Origin: a virus
DNA length: 64,000 bases
Virus record (IMG/VR): IMGVR_UViG_3300037245_001320
Location: 1 to 64,000 of that record
Strand: one strand, 5' to 3'
Under the pieces are notes generated by a model that was not told the DNA's origin, did no database searches, and saw only the letters and a list, made by a program, of their open reading frames with translations. Positions 33,509-61,400 of the stretch are shown in pieces (position 1 is the first letter of the stretch; each line of letters starts with the position of its first letter). The position numbers were made by a program, and so were the translations under genes.

Positions 33509-33531
33509 AAAAATTCCCACTATGCTATAAT
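33509..33531 (+). promoter_or_regulatory. Phage-specific (probably late/middle) promoter motif
   Basis: AAAAATTCCCACTATGCTATAAT; extended -10 without TTGACA; 3 copies in the window. Confidence 0.75.
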
Positions 33532-34317: not shown

Positions 34318-35082
34318 ATGAGTAAATATAAAATATATCAACACTTAGATAAAGAAGACAAGGTACTATATGTAGGGAGAACAACCCGTATGGACAGTAG
34401 ACAACTAGAGCATTTAAAAGCAACTCCGTATAGTAAGAAGATAGAAACAATATTAGAAGGAGAAGCAATAAATAGAACGGCTATGATTTTGTATGAGCAG
34501 TTCTATATAAACAAACTAAAACCATCAGAAAACGAAAGAGATAACAGAGGAGATGATGTGTCTTTCTTAAAGCTAGATTTAATAGAGTTCATCAATTATC
34601 CTTTTGTAAGACCTGCTCCACGAGTAAAACAAGTAATGCTCCCAACTAAGAAGTACATGAATGAAGAAGAGTTCCAAGTATTTATAGAAACGTTTAAAAG
34701 CAAAACAAAGACCGCCTTTAGAAATAAATTATTCTTTGAGATGACGTACTTCACCAAAATAAAACCAGCAGATTTTGCAACACTTACATGGAAAGATATT
34801 AAGAAAGTAAAAGGGGAACATCAATTGCATGTGCCCACAAAAGGATTTTATGTTGTTCTGCCTGAGGACATACCAGAGAAACTAAGTAAATTATATACGT
34901 TGTTTAATATGAAGAAGAAGGATTATATATTTAAACCCTTTTCTAAGGAAGCACCAATACAACTATCTTACTTAAGAAGGAAAATCACAGAGCACGGAAA
35001 ACTAGCAGGCTTCAATTTTGCAATGAATGTAAACCTTTTGCTTAAGGGAATGACGTATCACCAAATACCTATAGAAGATTAA
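34318..35082 (+). CDS. GIY-YIG nuclease fused to a degenerate tyrosine-recombinase-like domain
   Basis: N-terminal IYQH..VLYVGRT..RQLEH..E..N; C-terminal YMNEEE..RNKLFF..LTWKDI..YIF..SYLRR with catalytic R, HxxR and Y missing. Confidence 0.72.
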   Translation: MSKYKIYQHLDKEDKVLYVGRTTRMDSRQLEHLKATPYSKKIETILEGEAINRTAMILYEQFYINKLKPSENERDNRGDDVSFLKLDLIEFINYPFVRPAPRVKQVMLPTKKYMNEEEFQVFIETFKSKTKTAFRNKLFFEMTYFTKIKPADFATLTWKDIKKVKGEHQLHVPTKGFYVVLPEDIPEKLSKLYTLFNMKKKDYIFKPFSKEAPIQLSYLRRKITEHGKLAGFNFAMNVNLLLKGMTYHQIPIED

Positions 35083-49971: not shown

Positions 49972-49994
49972 AAAAATTCCCACTATGCTATAAT
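49972..49994 (+). promoter_or_regulatory. Phage-specific promoter motif upstream of terS
   Basis: AAAAATTCCCACTATGCTATAAT, identical to 33509. Confidence 0.78.
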
Positions 49995-50116
49995 AAAGAT
50001 ATAGGAAAGTAAAGGAAAATTGCTGAGAGTCAATACAAAGCACCTAGAGAGAAAGATAGGGAAATTGGCTAAAATAACTCAGAATTTATCCCCTAAAGAT
50101 TATAGGAGAAATAGTA

Positions 50117-50752
50117 GTGTGGATTAATAAAGAAGAAATACTAAAGGAAGTGGAAGAGGAAGATTGCTGGAAAGATCTTTCTGCTAAAGAAAAGAAGATG
50201 TTTTTGGCATACTGTGTAAATGGCTTAGATTATGTAAAAGCATATAAAGATGTTTATATGGATACAGAGTCAAGTAGGGTTGTAAAGTTCCCAGGGGACA
50301 AAGCAGCAATAATTGTAGCAAAAGACTCGTTTCAAGAGTGCTTTGAAATTTACGGGGAAGCATTACAAGAAGCAGCATCAACAAAAACTAATGCTCATTT
50401 ATATAATCAATATGTAATTATGGCAACAGCAAACCTCCTGGATTATGTTGACGAGATAGGACAATTTAAGTTTAAAAGTATTCAAGAAGCTAAAGATATC
50501 CTTGGAGAAAAAGCATTAGCCATAGTGGGGTTTCAAGTTAGTGTTCACCCGAAAGACCCAAAAAAGACGATGACTGTTCCAGTATTAGCAGATAAAATGA
50601 AAGCTATGAAAGAACTAGCCAAGTTCTCTAAATTATTTGGAGAAGCAGAGTCAGGTGGAAAAGGTCTTGGTACTATTAGTATTGATCTAGGTAATGCTGT
50701 ATTTAATAAAGAAGAAGAGGATAGAAAGAGAAAGGAGTTAGGAGTTGTCTAG
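50117..50752 (+). CDS. terS: Terminase small subunit
   Basis: N-terminal HTH (LSAKEKKMF..Y..AY), DKMKAMKELAK motif, directly upstream of terL. Confidence 0.8.
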   Translation: MWINKEEILKEVEEEDCWKDLSAKEKKMFLAYCVNGLDYVKAYKDVYMDTESSRVVKFPGDKAAIIVAKDSFQECFEIYGEALQEAASTKTNAHLYNQYVIMATANLLDYVDEIGQFKFKSIQEAKDILGEKALAIVGFQVSVHPKDPKKTMTVPVLADKMKAMKELAKFSKLFGEAESGGKGLGTISIDLGNAVFNKEEEDRKRKELGVV

Positions 50753-50870
50753 AAGAAAGAAACGAGATAAAGCAACTAATACAAAACTTGACTTTAATCT
50801 ATATCCAAAACAGAAGTTGGCTATGGATGGCGGGGCCAACGAGATATTATACGGAGGAGCAGCAGGGGGT
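50745..50870 (+). CDS. terL: Terminase large subunit exon 1 (42 aa)
   Basis: AAGGAG RBS, TTG start; ..LYPKQ..EILYGGAAGG, the first half of Walker A. Confidence 0.88.
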
Positions 50871-51127
50871 AAATAATACTGCTCCCTTTAAATCTCTCTT
50901 TAACGGGGAAACTCTTAACAGGTAAAGCTGAAGACAATCCCGTGGGAAGACACTTGAATGAGTGTAACCTGTAACGACTAGAGCATTGTGCTCGTACATC
51001 ACAAGCGATTGGTGATGGAAATGGGAGACAGAGTAAAATCTGAAGAGATAGTCTGATCTCATAGGAAACTATGAGCAGTTCATTTGAGAACGTGATCAAG
51101 GGTAGCGACTTGGTTAGAACATTATTG
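50871..51127 (+). ncRNA. Group I intron 1 (257 nt, no ORF)
   Basis: 5' exon ends in U with P1 partner GCTCCCT; core elements AACGGGGAAAC, AATCCCGTG, AACGACTA, GAGATAGTCT; terminal G; splicing restores GGAAGGGKS. Confidence 0.9.
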
Positions 51128-51799
51128 GGTAAATCACATTTATTGAGAATATCAGCTATAACATATTGTTTATCTTCCCCAGGTGTCCAAGTATATCTAT
51201 TTAGAAAGCAATTGACAGATTTGATTAAAGGTCATTTAAGTTCTGAGTCAGGGTTTCCTAGTTTATTATCTGGACTAGTAGATGCTAAATTATGTAAGAT
51301 AGATATGTCGAGATACAAAATAACCTTTAAAAATGGTTCAGGGGGGAATAGCTGGGCGGGTGGCTCAACTATCCACCTCAGTCACCTTTCTAAAGGAAAA
51401 AATTCATTAAATAATTATCAAGGTGCGGAGATACATGTGCTAATGTTAGATGAGGCAACTCACTTTTTAGCATCTAGTTACAAGTATTTAAGAACAAGGG
51501 TAAGGCTTGGTGGATGGAATCCTCCAGCAGAAGGTCCTTATAGTGGGGACTACTACCCCCGAATTTTAGCTTGCTCGAATCCTGGCGGCTTAAGTCATTC
51601 ATTTTGGAAGAACGAATTTGTGGATAGATTGGAAGATTATGTACCAGAGTTAATGCCTCCTGAACAAGGTGGTATGAGACGAATGTATATTTCTGCGAAA
51701 ATAACGGATAATGCTATCCTCATGAAAAACGATCCTACATATGTCTCAAGACTACTAGCCAGTGGAGAGAAATCTTATGTGGAAGCTTTATTACATGGT
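51128..51799 (+). CDS. terL: Terminase large subunit exon 2 (ATPase)
   Basis: GKSHLLR..FRK..YQGAEI..Walker B MLDEATHF..ACSNPGG..DN..ALLHG. Confidence 0.92.
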
Positions 51800-52113
51800 A
51801 AATTATTGCCCTTTATAATAGTGATATTATAATTAGCACAACTTTAATTGCTGGAAACTCTTGTTAGGTTTCAGGTACAAAGAGAAACAAATGTTTCTCT
51901 CGTGACAATCCTGAAAATAAAGACAATCAGCAGCGAAGACAGAAGGGAACTTCTGTAACGTTCATCGACTATCCCGTGAGGGAGTAGAGAGGTAGTCCTC
52001 TCGAAACAGGTTGCAACTCAAAAGAGTTGAAGATATAGTCAATTCTTGCAGGAGACTGTAAGCAGTTCATAAGAGAACGTAATTAGATTAACGATCTGGT
52101 TAGAATATAAAAG
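51800..52113 (+). ncRNA. Group I intron 2 (314 nt, no ORF)
   Basis: TAATTGCTGGAAACTC, GACAATCAGCAG, GTTCATCGACTA, AAGATATAGTC; terminal G; splicing restores LHG-NW. Confidence 0.9.
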
Positions 52114-52230
52114 AATTGGAATATTTCCATGGGAGGAATCCTACAAGATGACTTCTCCTTTGATATACACATTTTGGATGATTTTGAAATACCAAAGAAT
52201 TGGGATGTGTACAGATGTTTTGACTGGGGT
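52114..52230 (+). CDS. terL: Terminase large subunit exon 3 (39 aa)
   Basis: NWNISMGG..HILDDFEIPKNWDVYRCFDWG. Confidence 0.88.
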
Positions 52231-52542
52231 AAAAACTTGCTCCCCTTGACAGTAATGTTAAGTGTAAAACAACTTTAATTGCTGGAAACTCTCGCTAGGT
52301 TTCAGGTACTCACAGAACTTTGTTCTGAAGTAAAAATCCTGAAAATAGAGACAATCAGCAGCCAAGACAAGCATAAGCTTGTAAGGTTCAACGACTAGAG
52401 CATAAGCTCGTAGGGAGGTAGTCCTTCCGAAACAGGTTGCCCACAGAAATGTGGTGAAGATATAGTCTATTCTATATGGAGACATATAGCAGTTCAGTAA
52501 TGAGAACGTATTCAGATTAACGCCCTGAGTAGAATATGCAAG
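52231..52542 (+). ncRNA. Group I intron 3 (312 nt, no ORF)
   Basis: P1 partner GCTCC; TAATTGCTGGAAACTC, AATCAGCAG, GTTCAACGACTA, AAGATATAGTCT; splicing restores DWG-AAKPF. Confidence 0.9.
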
Positions 52543-53103
52543 GCAGCAAAACCCTTCGGTTGTATTTGGTTTGCAGAATCAAACGGAGAAGCAGTAGAAT
52601 TAGCAGACAAATCAGTAGTTACTTTTCCTGTAGGAACAGCTATAGCAATGAGAGAATTGTATGGTTGTAAAGAAGGGGAGTATGATGTCGGAGTTAATAT
52701 CACAGATAAGCAAATAGGAGAAAGAATTAAAGAAACAGAAGAGGTTTTCTTAAAAGGTTATAATATTAAAGCCGGTCCTGGGGACGGTAGTTGCTGGGGA
52801 AAAGCGAACAAAGAATTTTCAATTATTGATGATATTAACCATGGTTATTATGGAAGAAGAATATCAGATAATGAAAGACTATTCAAAAGGTTTCTAAAAC
52901 CCAAACATTCAAGAGTCGAGGGGTTTAGTTTAATTAGAACTAGATTAAGAAACTCATTACCATTTGCAGAAGGAAAGATGGAAGAGCAAGGATTATTCTT
53001 TTTAAGGGGATGTAAACATATGATAAGGACAATTCCTACACTTCCTCGAAGCGACTCGAATCCCGACGATTCTTCCCCTCATGCAGAAGACCATTTAGCA
53101 GAT
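52543..53103 (+). CDS. terL: Terminase large subunit exon 4 (nuclease)
   Basis: AAKPFGCIWFA..RELYG..C..IRTIPTLPR..PDD..EDHLAD. Confidence 0.9.
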
Positions 53104-53422
53104 AAACAACTATTGTCTGCCTAGCCTGTGAAGGTTAGTAAACAACTTTGTTAATTGCTGGAAACTCTTGTTAAGTTATAGGTACTCGTTAATTCAGTAA
53201 AAATCCTATAAATAGAGACAATCAGCAGCCAAGCCTGAAAAGGAAAGGTTCAACGATCATCGAAAGGGACAAAATAACTTGTCACTGAGTAGAGTACATC
53301 CAAGTGGATGGAAACGCAAAGCTCTCAGAAATGAGATGAAGATATGATCTAGCCTATATTGAGAAATATAGAAGTTCCTACGAGAACTGCAATAAAAGTA
53401 ACGAATTATTGTGAATACAGCG
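53104..53422 (+). ncRNA. Group I intron 4 (319 nt, no ORF)
   Basis: P1 GCAGAU/GUCUGC; TAATTGCTGGAAACTC, AATCAGCAG, GTTCAACGATCA with compensating AAGATATGATCT; splicing restores DHLAD-VLRY. Confidence 0.9.
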
Positions 53423-53488
53423 GTGTTAAGATATTACCTACTAAAGAAAGTTTCTAAAGTGGGTCAAGCTAGGGTGACATTATTTTGA
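53423..53488 (+). CDS. terL: Terminase large subunit exon 5 (21 aa)
   Basis: VLRYYLLKKVSKVGQARVTLF-stop completes the DHxxDxxRY motif. Confidence 0.85.
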   Translation: MLRYYLLKKVSKVGQARVTLF

Positions 53489-53520
53489 TAGTACAGACAA
53501 AAACTTAAGTCAAGTGCTAA

Positions 53521-53543
53521 AAAAATTCCCACTATGGTATAAT
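53521..53543 (+). promoter_or_regulatory. Phage-specific promoter motif upstream of the HNH gene
   Basis: AAAAATTCCCACTATGGTATAAT (1 mismatch to the other copies). Confidence 0.75.
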
Positions 53544-53549
53544 GTATAT

Positions 53550-53730
53550 ATAGGAAGGTTCGCATCTTCCTTAAGGTACAGTAAAATAGAGTCTCAAAGA
53601 ATCAATAAGAAAAACATATAAAAACCTCTTATTAGATCAGAAGTTAGGAAGAACTTTAAAGGATTTACTCTATTACCTTTGAAGTTCTATGCGAAACCTA
53701 ATGGAAGATCTAATAAGAGGTTTTTCATTT
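53550..53730 (+). ncRNA. Structured leader / candidate small RNA upstream of the HNH gene
   Basis: Perfect 19-bp stem 53620-38/53707-25, inner stems, bulge and loop complementary to upstream 53559-65 and 53585-92. Confidence 0.6.
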
Positions 53731-53748
53731 AAAAAAGGAATAAAAATA

Positions 53749-54762
53749 ATGAAACCAAGAGAAGTATCGCACAGATACAACAAAGCAAATGTTATGGTAA
53801 ACAAAGAACAGAAAGAGAAGATGTGTTCTGTTTGTAACAAAGTGAAAAGCCATAAGGAGTTCAATAAATCTTCTTCAAACAAAACAGATAGGTTAGCTGG
53901 AAGATGTAGAAAATGTGAACTTTCTCTACGGTATATAGTAAAAGACACACCTACTACAAAAGCAAAGAAATATAATAAAGACCACCAAGAAGAAAACTTA
54001 AAAAATAAGGAAAAGATGTGTGTATCATGTAATATAGTAAAGCCCTTAGAAGAGTATAATAAAGATAAAGCACGAAAAGATGGTAAGCAATCAGTGTGTA
54101 GACCCTGTAGGCAAGCATTTTACACTACTAATGACCAAAAGAAAAAAGCGAGGATGTATGATGATACCCCTGAGAGAAAAGCATACGAAAAGGAGCGAGC
54201 ACAGAGACCTGAGAGAAAAGCTTATTGTAAGGCACTCAGTAGCACACCTAGAGCAAGAAAACAACAAAAAGAGCATAGAAGTAGACCAGAAGTAAAAGAA
54301 AGACAAAGAGAGTTAAGTAAAATGCCTCATAGAAGAGCAACCACCAATGCATACAGGCAAAGTATAAGAGACAGACCAGAAGTTAGAGCTATGAATGCTA
54401 TGAGGGGAATTATACATAACACAGTAGCTAAGTTTGGAACTAAGAAAGAAAATAAAACTGTAGAAATAACAGGATACTCAGCTAAAGAGCTTATATCACA
54501 TTTAAACAAAGGGAAATACAAATGGAAAGACTATATGAAAAACACACATAAAAATATACTCTTCCACATCGACCACATCATACCCATATCCTATTTTGTA
54601 AAGAAAGGAAGAGAGTATTCAAAAGAAGAGCTAAATAAACTTATTTCTCGTGTCAATGATTTAAGAAATCTTAGAATATGGCCAGGAAGATTAAATGAAT
54701 CTAAGCATGATAAAATAGACAGGGATTTAATCAGAGAACATGGAATAGAGGATCTTCTTTAA
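53749..54762 (+). CDS. Free-standing HNH endonuclease with two N-terminal Zn-ribbon repeats
   Basis: CSVC..CRKC and CVSC..CRPC; R/K-rich helix; HIDHIIP..NLR..N..K; RBS-supported start at 53749. Confidence 0.85.
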   Translation: MKPREVSHRYNKANVMVNKEQKEKMCSVCNKVKSHKEFNKSSSNKTDRLAGRCRKCELSLRYIVKDTPTTKAKKYNKDHQEENLKNKEKMCVSCNIVKPLEEYNKDKARKDGKQSVCRPCRQAFYTTNDQKKKARMYDDTPERKAYEKERAQRPERKAYCKALSSTPRARKQQKEHRSRPEVKERQRELSKMPHRRATTNAYRQSIRDRPEVRAMNAMRGIIHNTVAKFGTKKENKTVEITGYSAKELISHLNKGKYKWKDYMKNTHKNILFHIDHIIPISYFVKKGREYSKEELNKLISRVNDLRNLRIWPGRLNESKHDKIDRDLIREHGIEDLL

Positions 54763-55113
54763 AACAAACTCTGGAAACCCTTGACACAACGACAGATAAA
54801 TAATACAATAAACAAATAGGAGAAATAAAGTTATGATTAAAATAGTAACAAAAGAAGAATACAAGAGAGTAACCCCAAATGGAATAAGCACATATTTTGA
54901 CTTTGAGGGAATTAGTTTTACAACCGGTTTAGCTACATGGAACTATTTCCTACACGAGTCTCTAGAAAATAAAGAGAAGACTGTTATATATGAAATAACA
55001 GCTAGAGAGGGATTTGACGTATGGGACGCAAGAGATAAAATTATTAAAGATAAAATAGAGTTAACTTCCTTTCACAAGGTTGTTAATAGAGTGTTAGATA
55101 GAGGAGAAACAAT

Positions 55114-55440
55114 ATGATAAAAGAATTAGATTTAAATAGGTTTTGCTCAGACGGAATGTTTGAGTGCTTAGTAGATGACCATGAGAAGTATTTAAAGACA
55201 GATGGAGAAGAAGGAGAAAGAATAGTTCTAAGAGGAGTACAGATAGGAGGTATTTGGCAATCAGATATCGATCTATCCCACTCCACATATACTGACTGTG
55301 AGTTTGAAGGATCTCCTGTAGATAAGGTTAACTTTACATCAGCCTTCTTTAAGAATTGTAATTTTGAAGAAACAGTTTTTACTGACTGTAATTTTGATCA
55401 AGCAAGATTTATTAACTGTGTAAATGCACCTATACACTAA
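55114..55440 (+). CDS. Pentapeptide-repeat protein
   Basis: VNFTS AFFKN CNFEE TVFTD CNFDQ ARFIN. Confidence 0.8.
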   Translation: MIKELDLNRFCSDGMFECLVDDHEKYLKTDGEEGERIVLRGVQIGGIWQSDIDLSHSTYTDCEFEGSPVDKVNFTSAFFKNCNFEETVFTDCNFDQARFINCVNAPIH

Positions 55441-58454: not shown

Positions 58455-61400
58455 ATGAATATTGCATACATAGTAAAAACTAGAAAAAACAAGTACCGAC
58501 CATTTGTTGGTACTCCAGTTAAGGATGATGACGATAGCTTTATGAACGTTTTAGCTAGTGGAGAACTTATGCTGGAATTGAAAGAAGCCCAAGATTTTAT
58601 TACATCTAACCGAGAAGGTATAGACAGAATTTATTTAAATCCTGTTCCCTCTGGTATGGTAGGTATTTCATGGATGAGTGAAATTGAGTCTGCAAACTCT
58701 TAGTAGGAATAAATAAAGGAGAAAATATATGAAACATCTAAGAAAATTAAATAAGAAAAAGAAGAGTATAAAAGAGATCATTAAAGAAGAGATCTTAAAC
58801 AATCTAACTATCTCAGTTAGTACAGAAGGCAGGTACGAAGATGAATCCTTTTATGTTTCAGTATCTGTATATTTAGATTATGATGGAGAACCCATATGTG
58901 ATGGTTACGATAGTGTATCAGTTTAGAGAGGAGAACCCATGCCAGTAACAACAGTAACAAGGACATTAACAAAAAGAGAATTAAACAAATTGAAAAAGAA
59001 GAGAGAATCATATAGAAGAAAGCTTATTAAGAAGTTTAGAAAGGAGAGAATGAAGTGAACCACAAATTATCAGAAAATGCAATAAACCAAAGTTTTATCA
59101 ATTCAGATCTTCCTATAGACCAATGGGAAGGATATTTATATGCATGTAGACAATTCAATATTATAAAACAACCCACATACAAGAAGCATATTCTGATAGA
59201 AATAGGAGGATCACAAGGATTCTTTGGAAGTCATACTCCACGAGCTTATGCAGGAAAAACAGATGGTTATCAGTTTAGAGACAGTTTAGGACAAGATATA
59301 ATGAGAAATCCAGCTTCTATAACATTAAGATATGCAGACAATGTTTATGCTGTTAATGCTAATTTCTTTTATGGGTTATTCTCATTAACAGTACAAAGTA
59401 TAGGAAAGGAGAAGTTCTTATCTATTTTGTATTTACCTGAGGATTTTGATTTTCAAGTATGTTTAAATGAAGCGTTGAGAATGATGGAAGACAAATCAGA
59501 AATATTTAAAGATTGCAGGAGAAAAAATGAACTACAAAACAATATCAACAACAGTAATGCATCCAAACATCTACGGAGGTAAAGAATGTAACGAGCATAT
59601 ACCCCAATGGAGAGGGCATTTTTATGATGAAGAGAATACTGATTTAGAAAGTATAGAGCTTAATCCAAAAGCCTTCCCAGCAGGCACGAGGATCACCATA
59701 CAAGTACCTTTATGCCCTAAATGTAATATGGAGCAAGAGATGTGTGAATGTGGCTTTGATTGGGTTGCTTGGACGGAGTGTAATTATGGGTAATAACAAA
59801 CTTATTCCTACAGCTATTAAAATGATAAATGGAGAGTTTAGCAGTTTTAATAACAGAGGTGTCATAGATCATTCCTATTTAAGAGGATGGATGAATACCA
59901 TAAATGACTGTTTAGATTCCTTTACAAATTGCTGGGGTATTAGAGAAGGTAAAGCTTTTCATGAATTCCGAGAAGATAGAAAAACACTCCGAAATTATGC
60001 CCTAGACCTAGCGAGAGAATGGGTAAAAGAAAACATAGATGAAGTATCTTGGGCATATGATGAACTAGAGGAAGATCGGAAGGAATGGTTAAAGACTAAT
60101 AGGAAGGAGAAATAATGCTAAGTTTTAAAGAAGAAAAAACAGTAGTTGAAAATAATAAACAAAGGTTAGATAACATATATAAAACTATTCCTAGAAGTAC
60201 CAAACTACTAGGACAAATTCAAGAGGCCTACTATAAATTAGAACAAGTAGAGGAAGATCTTGTGAAAGAAATAAAAGAGTTAGAACTAAAGCAAAGACAG
60301 GAGATGCATCATTTAAAACGAAAACCTTCTTATCTAGTAAGTGATATACACTTTTTTACACAAGAATATGATAAAGCTTTATTAGAGGAGAAACTATGAG
60401 TATAGATTTAGAATGTGATGAAGATCAAGAAAATTATAATATATCAATACAGGATATTATAGATAGATGCAAGAAAGAATTTGGAGAAGAGGTAGATTTA
60501 AATAAATTAAGATTGAACACTTCTTATCAACAATATGCCTGCTTTGGATATGATCTATACGATTCAGGAGATTATATGTGTTATACGGAAATAAAGTACA
60601 AGGAGAACAAATGAAAACATTTATAGAACTAGTATCAGAGGATGGAATAAAAACCATAGAAAGAACAGATAGGATTAGAACGTTAGAACCATTAGGAAAG
60701 TTCTGTAGAATATGGTGGGAACCTGATCAAGTTACAGAGGAGTTTAACGAAACAGGAACAGATTATACCACACCCTACGAAGAAGTAAGAAAAATACTAC
60801 TGGATATAGAAGAATGATAGTTTCCTCAGCAGTACAATTAGAAGATGGTAGAGTGTTTGTGGGTAGAAGACACGGTGATTGTTATACCCATATGATGGAG
60901 GTATTAAATTTATCCTTAAATGAGGTTCCAATAGATAACTCTGTACAAGGATTCCAAACAGATTTCCAAGTGTTCCTAAATAGAGAAGATGGTTACTATC
61001 ATGCTAGAAAATACAATCAATGTAAGGAACAATTTTGGAAAGAAACTAATTACACTAATGGGCTAGGAAACACTAAGGAAGAAGAATGGTCACCTTGTTT
61101 GATTTCAGAGCATTTATGGCAGGAGGATTTTAAATGAACAAAGGAATAGAAGCATTAAATAAAATACTATTAGAAGTCCAAGATATGTCTCCTGAAGAGT
61201 ATATGGAATTGTATAACCAATCAGAAGCAAGATTAGAAAGACCAAACAGAATAAAGAGAACACCAGAAGAAATAAAGGAATTTAATCTAAATATGGGAGC
61301 TCTTATAGAGAAGACAACAGCACTGGAAATAGAGCACTTAAAGAATAAAGGTATTACTTGGTGTAAAAACCCTAAGTGTAATTATGAAGTCTCCTCAACA

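Follow-up and report, generated by a model that had tools for sequence, protein, structure and literature searches.

The layout in which a free-standing nuclease gene lies beside an intron-split gene has already been described, in cyanophage S-PM2, in T3-like phages and at the terL gene of phage ICP1. In S-PM2, cleavage by the nuclease F-CphI at the place in psbA where the intron is inserted has been proven (PMC6083498), and a like layout was reported at ICP1 terL (PMC10448857; Barth et al., 2023); collaborative homing is a documented process, as the original prediction for the locus treated here had stated. In T4, the enzyme MobE carries the neighbouring defunct I-TevIII intron by co-conversion, with a reach of up to 2 kb and with no cut at the insertion site (PMC2790892). 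In Bastillevirinae, up to three introns without an open reading frame (ORF) have been reported in one terL (PMC11878797), and cos-linked zinc-ribbon HNH nicking endonucleases, from 95 to ~300 aa long, bear a [CxxC]2 site in their HNH domain (Xu and Gupta, 2013; PMC3592412). The locus studied here, positions 53423-54762 of a window that consists of the initial 64 kb of an uncultured-phage record of 154,018 bp (IMGVR_UViG_3300037245_001320), holds the last exon of a terL gene and, downstream of it, the gene of a predicted nuclease. It stands out in that its terL carries as many as four ORF-less introns that are related to one another. As a whole, the results were best explained, with a confidence slightly on the positive side of even, by an intact free-standing homing-type endonuclease, with the introns being carried by co-conversion. 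The features of the locus are as follows (window coordinates, as in the rest of the text unless the genome or a contig is named):

50745..53488, + strand, terL, with five exons and four group I introns, all of them ORF-less and related to one another
50745-50870, 51128-51799, 52114-52230, 52543-53103 and 53423-53488, + strand, terL exons 1 to 5, with the stop codon at 53486-53488
50871-51127, 51800-52113, 52231-52542 and 53104-53422, + strand, terL introns 1 to 4 (257, 314, 312 and 319 nt)
53423..53488, + strand, terL exon 5 (VLRY... to the stop codon), the 5' edge of which is the intron insertion site nearest to the nuclease gene
53519..53543, + strand, late-type promoter motif (A-tract, TTCCCACTATGG, TATAAT at 53538-53543)
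53550..53748, + strand, structured leader (5' hairpin at 53552-53571, terminator-like hairpin at ~53621-53722, T-run, ribosome-binding site)
53749..54762, + strand, free-standing His-Me (HNH-type) endonuclease gene, 337 aa
53824..54108, + strand, two zinc ribbons of four cysteines each (residues 26-56 and 91-120), beta-hairpins in the model
54100..54435, + strand, about six short helices, each proline-started (xPExK...), with a period of 13 residues (model helices 118-229)
54556..54708, + strand, C-terminal His-Me finger catalytic core HIDHIIP...NLRIWP...N..K

The nuclease ORF extends from 53689 to 54762, and its likely start is the ATG at 53749, as in the public gene call P0001; this codon has AAGGA ~12 nt upstream, and an earlier ATG sits within a strong hairpin. 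The gene stands alone between the terL stop codon (53488) and the next promoter and gene (54781 and 54833, respectively), outside any intron or intein. The possibility that it is the remnant of an intron ORF was considered and rejected: exon 5 aligns with the C-terminus of TerL, and the terL stop codon precedes ATG 53749 by 260 nt, a distance that agrees with the ~260 bp given in the original prediction.

The predicted product is an intact HNH-type nuclease with tandem zinc ribbons, as had been claimed before, and “His-Me/HNH-type” is its more exact name because the match to Pfam HNH (PF01844) remained below the cut-off (12.3 bits vs. 21.4). All eight cysteines of the ribbons are present (C26/C29...C53/C56 in ribbon 1 and C91/C94...C117/C120 in ribbon 2), and each of the four in ribbon 2 was at least 90% conserved among 60 homologs. 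Profile matches of the ribbons to that of Hpy99I and to Stc1 were weak, with the Pfam Stc1 zinc-finger below threshold. In the catalytic core, D275, H276, N307, N316 and K319 were invariant in the 60 homologs; in the structural model, D275 and H276 lie on strand 272-276, and strand 308-312 is followed by helix 313-319. When the 60-homolog profile was compared with the PDB, it matched residues 469-528 of BrxU, the His-Me region of this GmrSD-type enzyme (E 1.3e-4), and the PADLOC model HEC-05 matched residues 267-325 of the nuclease (E 1.3e-6). Matches in PHROGs were obtained to “endonuclease VII” (E 5e-15), to the “Lar-like” zinc-ribbon family and to phrog_2340, “endonuclease” (E 1.3e-11). The search of NCBIfam with the nuclease gave no match, and a scan of the entire genome with Pfam Endonuclease_7 (PF02945) was also negative at E≤0.01. 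By these comparisons, the subtype is the cysteine-free core of the GmrSD/BrxU (DUF262-protein) enzymes, neither the canonical Pfam HNH nor that of T4 endonuclease VII.

The C-terminal domain, folded alone, reached a pLDDT of 91 and a pTM of 0.80. Its fold matches were individually weak (best Foldseek E 0.083, with a probability of 0.89; best VIA Z 3.8, with an rmsd of 4.8 over 92 residues). The fold-search lists consisted nearly entirely of His-Me/HNH nucleases (BrxU, Cas9 HNH, Cap5, McrA, colicins and Vvn), and in VIA, where 30 chains reached Z≥2, the majority were His-Me nucleases. The fold search with the full-length model was swamped by coiled-coil noise. Between the ribbons and the core, the xPExK motif recurs at residues 141, 154, 167, 180, 193 and 210. 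The period of this helix array is 13 residues both here and in L011 (L011:5650-5950), a 12-kb fragment without terL that was the one true relative of the phage (portal 60% and capsid 64% identical), and 17 residues in the second copy of the nuclease (genome 66139-66450); the number of repeats also varies. The proline-started helices may form a modular DNA-reading array.

Two paralogs of the nuclease gene are present in the same genome, one at 65794-66855, directly before the portal promoter, and the other at 97831-98826 on the opposite strand. The three copies have diverged to 30–34% identity, and all of them have the same promoter. The family to which they belong comprised 65,884 cluster representatives at E≤1e-3, a count whose weaker tail may be inflated by the lysine/arginine-rich helices, and 21,701 at E≤1e-10. 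The nearest atlas clusters were 93–100% viral, and the cluster of the nuclease itself held only the copies of this phage.

Family members were found beside, and apparently inside, core genes of other phages. In three IMG/VR contigs (L028:8392-13853, L037:304-5906 and L036:6939-12409), a member lies between two DNA polymerase ORFs that jointly make one polymerase, with gaps of 4 and 115 nt around the nuclease in L028, and no group I intron was detected by Rfam; the nuclease gene appears to interrupt the polymerase gene. Other members adjoin genes for ribonucleotide reductase (RNR), primase, SbcC, tail sheath, tape-measure protein and TerL; in Paracoccus phage KLEP18-1, terS and terL have one member between them, and another lies by DNA methyltransferases and a primase in phage 16-3. 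Both paralogs, and the members at every relative locus scanned, stand beside intron-free genes, including an intron-free terL in L042 and KLEP18-1. At the family level, the nuclease is to all appearances independent of introns. These results upheld one part of the earlier interpretation, namely that the enzyme is a free-standing nuclease of homing-like character, given its three genome copies and its relatives beside or inside polymerase, RNR, primase, sheath, tape-measure and terL genes. The match to phrog_2340, which spans ribbon 2 and the helical region, also ties the family to intron-borne endonucleases, as phrog_2340 members are encoded inside DNA-polymerase introns of Bastillevirinae (PMC11878797). 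Nevertheless, only part of the protein is covered by this match, and the members described are intron-encoded, whereas the nuclease studied here is free-standing.

The claim that the nuclease has its own promoter was confirmed. The stretch 53519-53543, an A-tract plus TTCCCACTATGGTATAAT, is an exact copy of a motif that occurs 12 times in the genome and is more than a random resemblance to a consensus. The 19-mer after the A-tract, ATTCCCACTATG[G/C]TATAAT, had these 12 copies with at most one mismatch: three in the window (33513-33531, 49976-49994 and 53525-53543) and nine at genome positions 65583, 66927, 69477, 86851, 94979, 98897(-), 116441(-), 132935(-) and 150360(-). Copies of the promoter precede terS, the portal gene, the scaffold gene, a 695-aa gene of tail-fibre size, both nuclease paralogs and another HNH ORF, and the same motif was found before the portal and scaffold genes in L011. 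The 19-mer is probably the late promoter of this phage and, because it is of the late type, the nuclease would have a late transcription start of its own.

Furthermore, the RNA of the leader was predicted to fold with −55.2 kcal/mol (z −6.6), including a long hairpin of roughly 100 nt, and the leader of the paralog at 65794 has the same layout. In both leaders, folding gave a 5' hairpin and, after it, a long terminator-like hairpin that ends in a T-run. At E≤1, the leader was not assigned to any Rfam family. Leaders of ~190–205 nt separate the promoter from four genes, which are two nuclease paralogs, a 397-aa ORF and an ORF with a Pfam HNH match; they lie at 53550-53748 in the window and at 65602-65793, about 116252-116440(-) and about 150173-150359(-) in the genome. 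Expression of the nuclease probably needs read-through of the terminator, a requirement that fits a gene product that must stay scarce.

The terL gene upstream contains four matches to the group I intron family RF00028 of Rfam (87.1, 82.7, 74.9 and 48.3 bits, with a cut-off of 50), and no further match above the cut-off was found in the scan of the whole 154-kb genome. As previously claimed, there is no homing endonuclease gene in any of the introns, which are too short to hold one (257–319 nt) and contain no gene. Introns 2 and 3 are 75% identical, and the remaining pairs 53–67%. Exon boundaries were derived from the reading frame and from a tblastn comparison with the TerL of the IMG/VR contig L004, which is uninterrupted and 48% identical; the boundary of intron 3 was shifted by three bases to 52230/52231, which gave the same exon end, GGT, as before introns 1 and 2, and a gap-free protein alignment with L004. 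All four introns are in phase 0, with a T before them and a G at their end.

The insertion sites in TerL are GG|GKS, in the Walker A loop, LLHG|NW, FDWG|AAKPF and EDHLAD|VLRY. The last of them was corroborated by the TerL of L004, which has AEDHDYD ALRY at the equivalent place, with the C-termini aligned. The junctions of the exons are, from the first to the fourth, GCAGCAGGGGGT|GGTAAATCACAT, TTATTACATGGT|AATTGGAATATT, TTTGACTGGGGT|GCAGCAAAACCC and CATTTAGCAGAT|GTGTTAAGATAT. They have only a short GGT/GAT 5' end in common, with no shared site, and this common end reflects the related guide sequences of the introns. TerL itself matched Pfam Terminase_6N, a T4-like-type model. As a separate observation, full-length relatives of intron 3 (52231-52542) were found among sequenced phages only in 130-kb Clostridioides phages (AR1086-1 and ES-S-0107-01). 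These relatives are 68% identical, ORF-less and located between two large unnamed genes, and they are uninformative on terL.

Under the favoured explanation, the zinc ribbons and the helical repeat array of the nuclease would read DNA and the C-terminal His-Me domain would cut it, the gene being one of three such cassettes in the genome. Expression would be late and low, as suggested by its own late-type promoter and the terminator-like hairpin of its leader. In a mixed infection with related phages devoid of the cassette, the enzyme would nick or cut their DNA at a site within or beside the 3' part of terL, or where terL meets the portal gene; repair would then use the cassette-bearing genome and copy in the nuclease gene together with flanking DNA, and the ORF-less introns would travel with it by co-conversion (trans homing). 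Calculated from the exon lengths, the distances of the four insertion sites from the start codon of the nuclease would be ~326, 887, 1004 and 1676 nt in an intron-less allele. Since all of them are within about 0.3–1.7 kb of the cassette, the introns would ride along by co-conversion. MobE, which can carry a non-mobile intron beside it, resembles the nuclease in being a free-standing HNH-family enzyme, and the four sites, within ~1.7 kb, compare with its reach. In contrast to the present gene, with its dedicated late promoter and terminator-like leader, mobE has no promoter of its own and is co-transcribed with nrdA, and its product has another protein architecture.

A cassette-less arrangement was found in L004 and L063, the contigs whose intact TerL is the closest (48–50% identity); there, terL is intron-free, the portal gene follows directly and no nuclease gene lies between them. 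In the present phage, the terL-portal junction spans ~13 kb (53489 to genome 66876) and comprises the first cassette, ~12 kb of accessory genes and the second cassette. In L011, the nuclease and portal genes are likewise preceded by part of this block, including methyltransferase-like genes and ORFs homologous to those at 60115 and 61879. The terL-portal block resembles the “homing endonuclease gene (HEG) islands” of PMC10448857. L011 carries a member of the nuclease family (36% identical) at the same spot before the portal gene, and this would indicate either a long retention of the portal-side copy or a repeated invasion of the site.

Several points weigh against a homing-type nuclease with co-converted introns. 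The optionality of the cassette is derived only from TerL relatives at 48–50% identity, and the portal-side position kept in L011 could reflect retention for a phage function. Moreover, the nuclease gene is not a recent arrival, since its GC content and its GC content at third codon positions (GC3) equal those of the genome, and the closest solved nuclease domain is that of a type IV restriction enzyme. If the DNA of the phage carries a cytosine modification, self might also be told from non-self by this mark instead of by a target site.

The alternative that best survived, though it appears unlikely, is the strict form of collaborative homing. Here, the nuclease recognizes the uninterrupted DHLAD|VLRY of an intron-less terL, intron 4 splits this site and protects the carrier, and both spread as a unit. 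The geometry matches that of F-CphI/psbA and ICP1 terL, with DHLAD|VLRY 326 nt from the start codon. In addition, the introns are ORF-less, all introns of the genome are in terL, and the site corresponds to a conserved nuclease motif of TerL. However, the paralogs and relatives adjoin intron-free genes, among them an intron-free terL (L042 and KLEP18-1). The four junctions are also without a common site and, because they share only the GGT/GAT 5' end, one site-specific enzyme could target at most one of them, which leaves three introns unexplained. The spread of introns within terL is equally compatible with reverse splicing or co-conversion. No specific feature pointed to a cut at DHLAD|VLRY. 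The more specific part of the earlier interpretation, that the nuclease targets this site of intron-less terL and that the introns provide immunity, did not stand as the preferred one; a cut at DHLAD|VLRY is no more likely than a spread of the introns as hitch-hikers in co-conversion, and hitch-hiking in some form is the more likely of the two.

Like F-CphI, the nuclease gene is free-standing and adjoins a gene with ORF-less group I introns, and F-CphI is also a beta-beta-alpha-metal nuclease, the relatives of which are annotated as “endonuclease VII” (PMC6083498). F-CphI differs in its catalytic domain, which has the motif of T4 Endo VII and contains CxxC zinc ligands, whereas the core is cysteine-free and GmrSD/BrxU-like in the present enzyme. 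There is one intron in psbA and four in this terL, and cleavage at the insertion site, proven for F-CphI, is a prediction here. With ICP1, the locus shares terL as the host gene, the ORF-less intron and an adjoining free-standing nuclease (PMC10448857; Barth et al., 2023). Nuclease genes bracket a gene block in ICP1 as the two cassettes bracket the 13 kb terL-portal stretch here. Nevertheless, the ICP1 enzyme is a T5orf172 nuclease located at the N-terminal exon of a gene with one intron, whereas the present one belongs to another family, lies downstream of terL and accompanies four introns. A combined proposal joins several of these elements: one nuclease keeps four related ORF-less introns within a single essential gene, of which one shields the site and three ride in the co-conversion tract, the very large and uncharacterised phage family of the enzyme may read DNA through its variable helix array, and the dose is set by the terminator-bearing leader shared by the nuclease cassettes. 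Taken with all of its parts, this proposal is speculative and we give it a rather low probability.

A second alternative, which we consider quite improbable, dispenses with homing. In it, the targets of the nuclease are the unmodified DNAs of the host or of competing phages, and the DNA of the phage itself is spared by cytosine modification, in the way that T4 nucleases spare modified DNA. The core is indeed closest to the GmrSD/BrxU and HEC-05 type, resembling type IV restriction enzymes, and the second paralog, its L011 counterpart and p100 of phage 16-3 are each located just after DNA methyltransferase-like genes. On the other hand, the zinc ribbons and the repeat array suggest the reading of a site, relatives split DNA polymerase genes in a manner typical of homing elements, and a terminator-gated late promoter suggests a low dosage, unsuited to bulk degradation.

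The cos-linked HNH enzymes of the HK97 gp74 type share with the nuclease the zinc ribbons, an HNH-type domain and the location of their genes near terminase or portal genes, but in the listed examples they precede terS (PMC3592412), whereas here the gene follows terL, has paralogs elsewhere and has relatives by unrelated core genes. A packaging helper, either a terminase-assisting HNH of this type or a T4 endonuclease VII-type resolvase clearing branched DNA at the portal, was the weakest alternative and is very improbable; a packaging-accessory HNH had been named as an alternative in the original prediction. Such a role is favoured by the place of this late gene, downstream of terL and upstream of portal, by another copy directly before the portal gene with its position kept in L011, by the PHROG label “endonuclease VII” and by the frequency of HNH genes beside terminase genes (PMC3592412), but is opposed by a protein of 337 aa with a cysteine-free catalytic region and without a [CxxC]2 site in the HNH domain, by the lack of a Pfam Endonuclease_7 match and the below-cut-off Pfam HNH match, by three copies diverged to 30–34% identity with family members by replication and tail genes, and by a TerL of the T4-like type (Terminase_6N), in the closest relatives of which terL and portal are not separated by a gene of this kind.

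If the link of the free-standing homing-type nuclease to the introns is true, the locus would be a case of multi-intron collaborative or trans homing in a packaging gene, and it would bear on the ways in which nuclease-less introns are kept and multiplied in core genes of phages. Apart from the question of the introns, the nuclease family has tens of thousands of cluster representatives and is unnamed in curated libraries, and the location of its members next to or within core genes identifies it as a major class of phage homing-type nucleases that is still unstudied. The repeat array is a candidate for a modular reader of DNA in this class.

Additionally, relatives of the phage were searched for in several collections. 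The megablast of 50000-55200 against phages returned only matches of 35–46 nt to the intron cores, and the best match in the tblastn of terL exon 2 against phages was 48% identical. Scans of IMG/VR with terL exon 2, the nuclease, the capsid protein and P0012 detected only L004 (48%) and L011, and the best match in a scan of JGI metagenomes was 32% identical. The scan of GTDB genomes gave two contigs of Spirochaetaceae metagenome-assembled genomes (MAGs), L063 and L064, with a TerL identity of 42–49%. No terL-bearing relative closer than 48–50% TerL identity was therefore found in phages, IMG/VR, JGI metagenomes or GTDB. The two Spirochaetaceae MAG contigs give a faint hint on the host range of the terminase lineage.

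Finally, a weak match to GIY-YIG (19.4 bits, below the cut-off) was observed at 34327-34524, in a 256-aa ORF. Upstream of this GIY-YIG-like ORF lies an ORF of 241 aa, which is itself preceded by a further copy of the late promoter.

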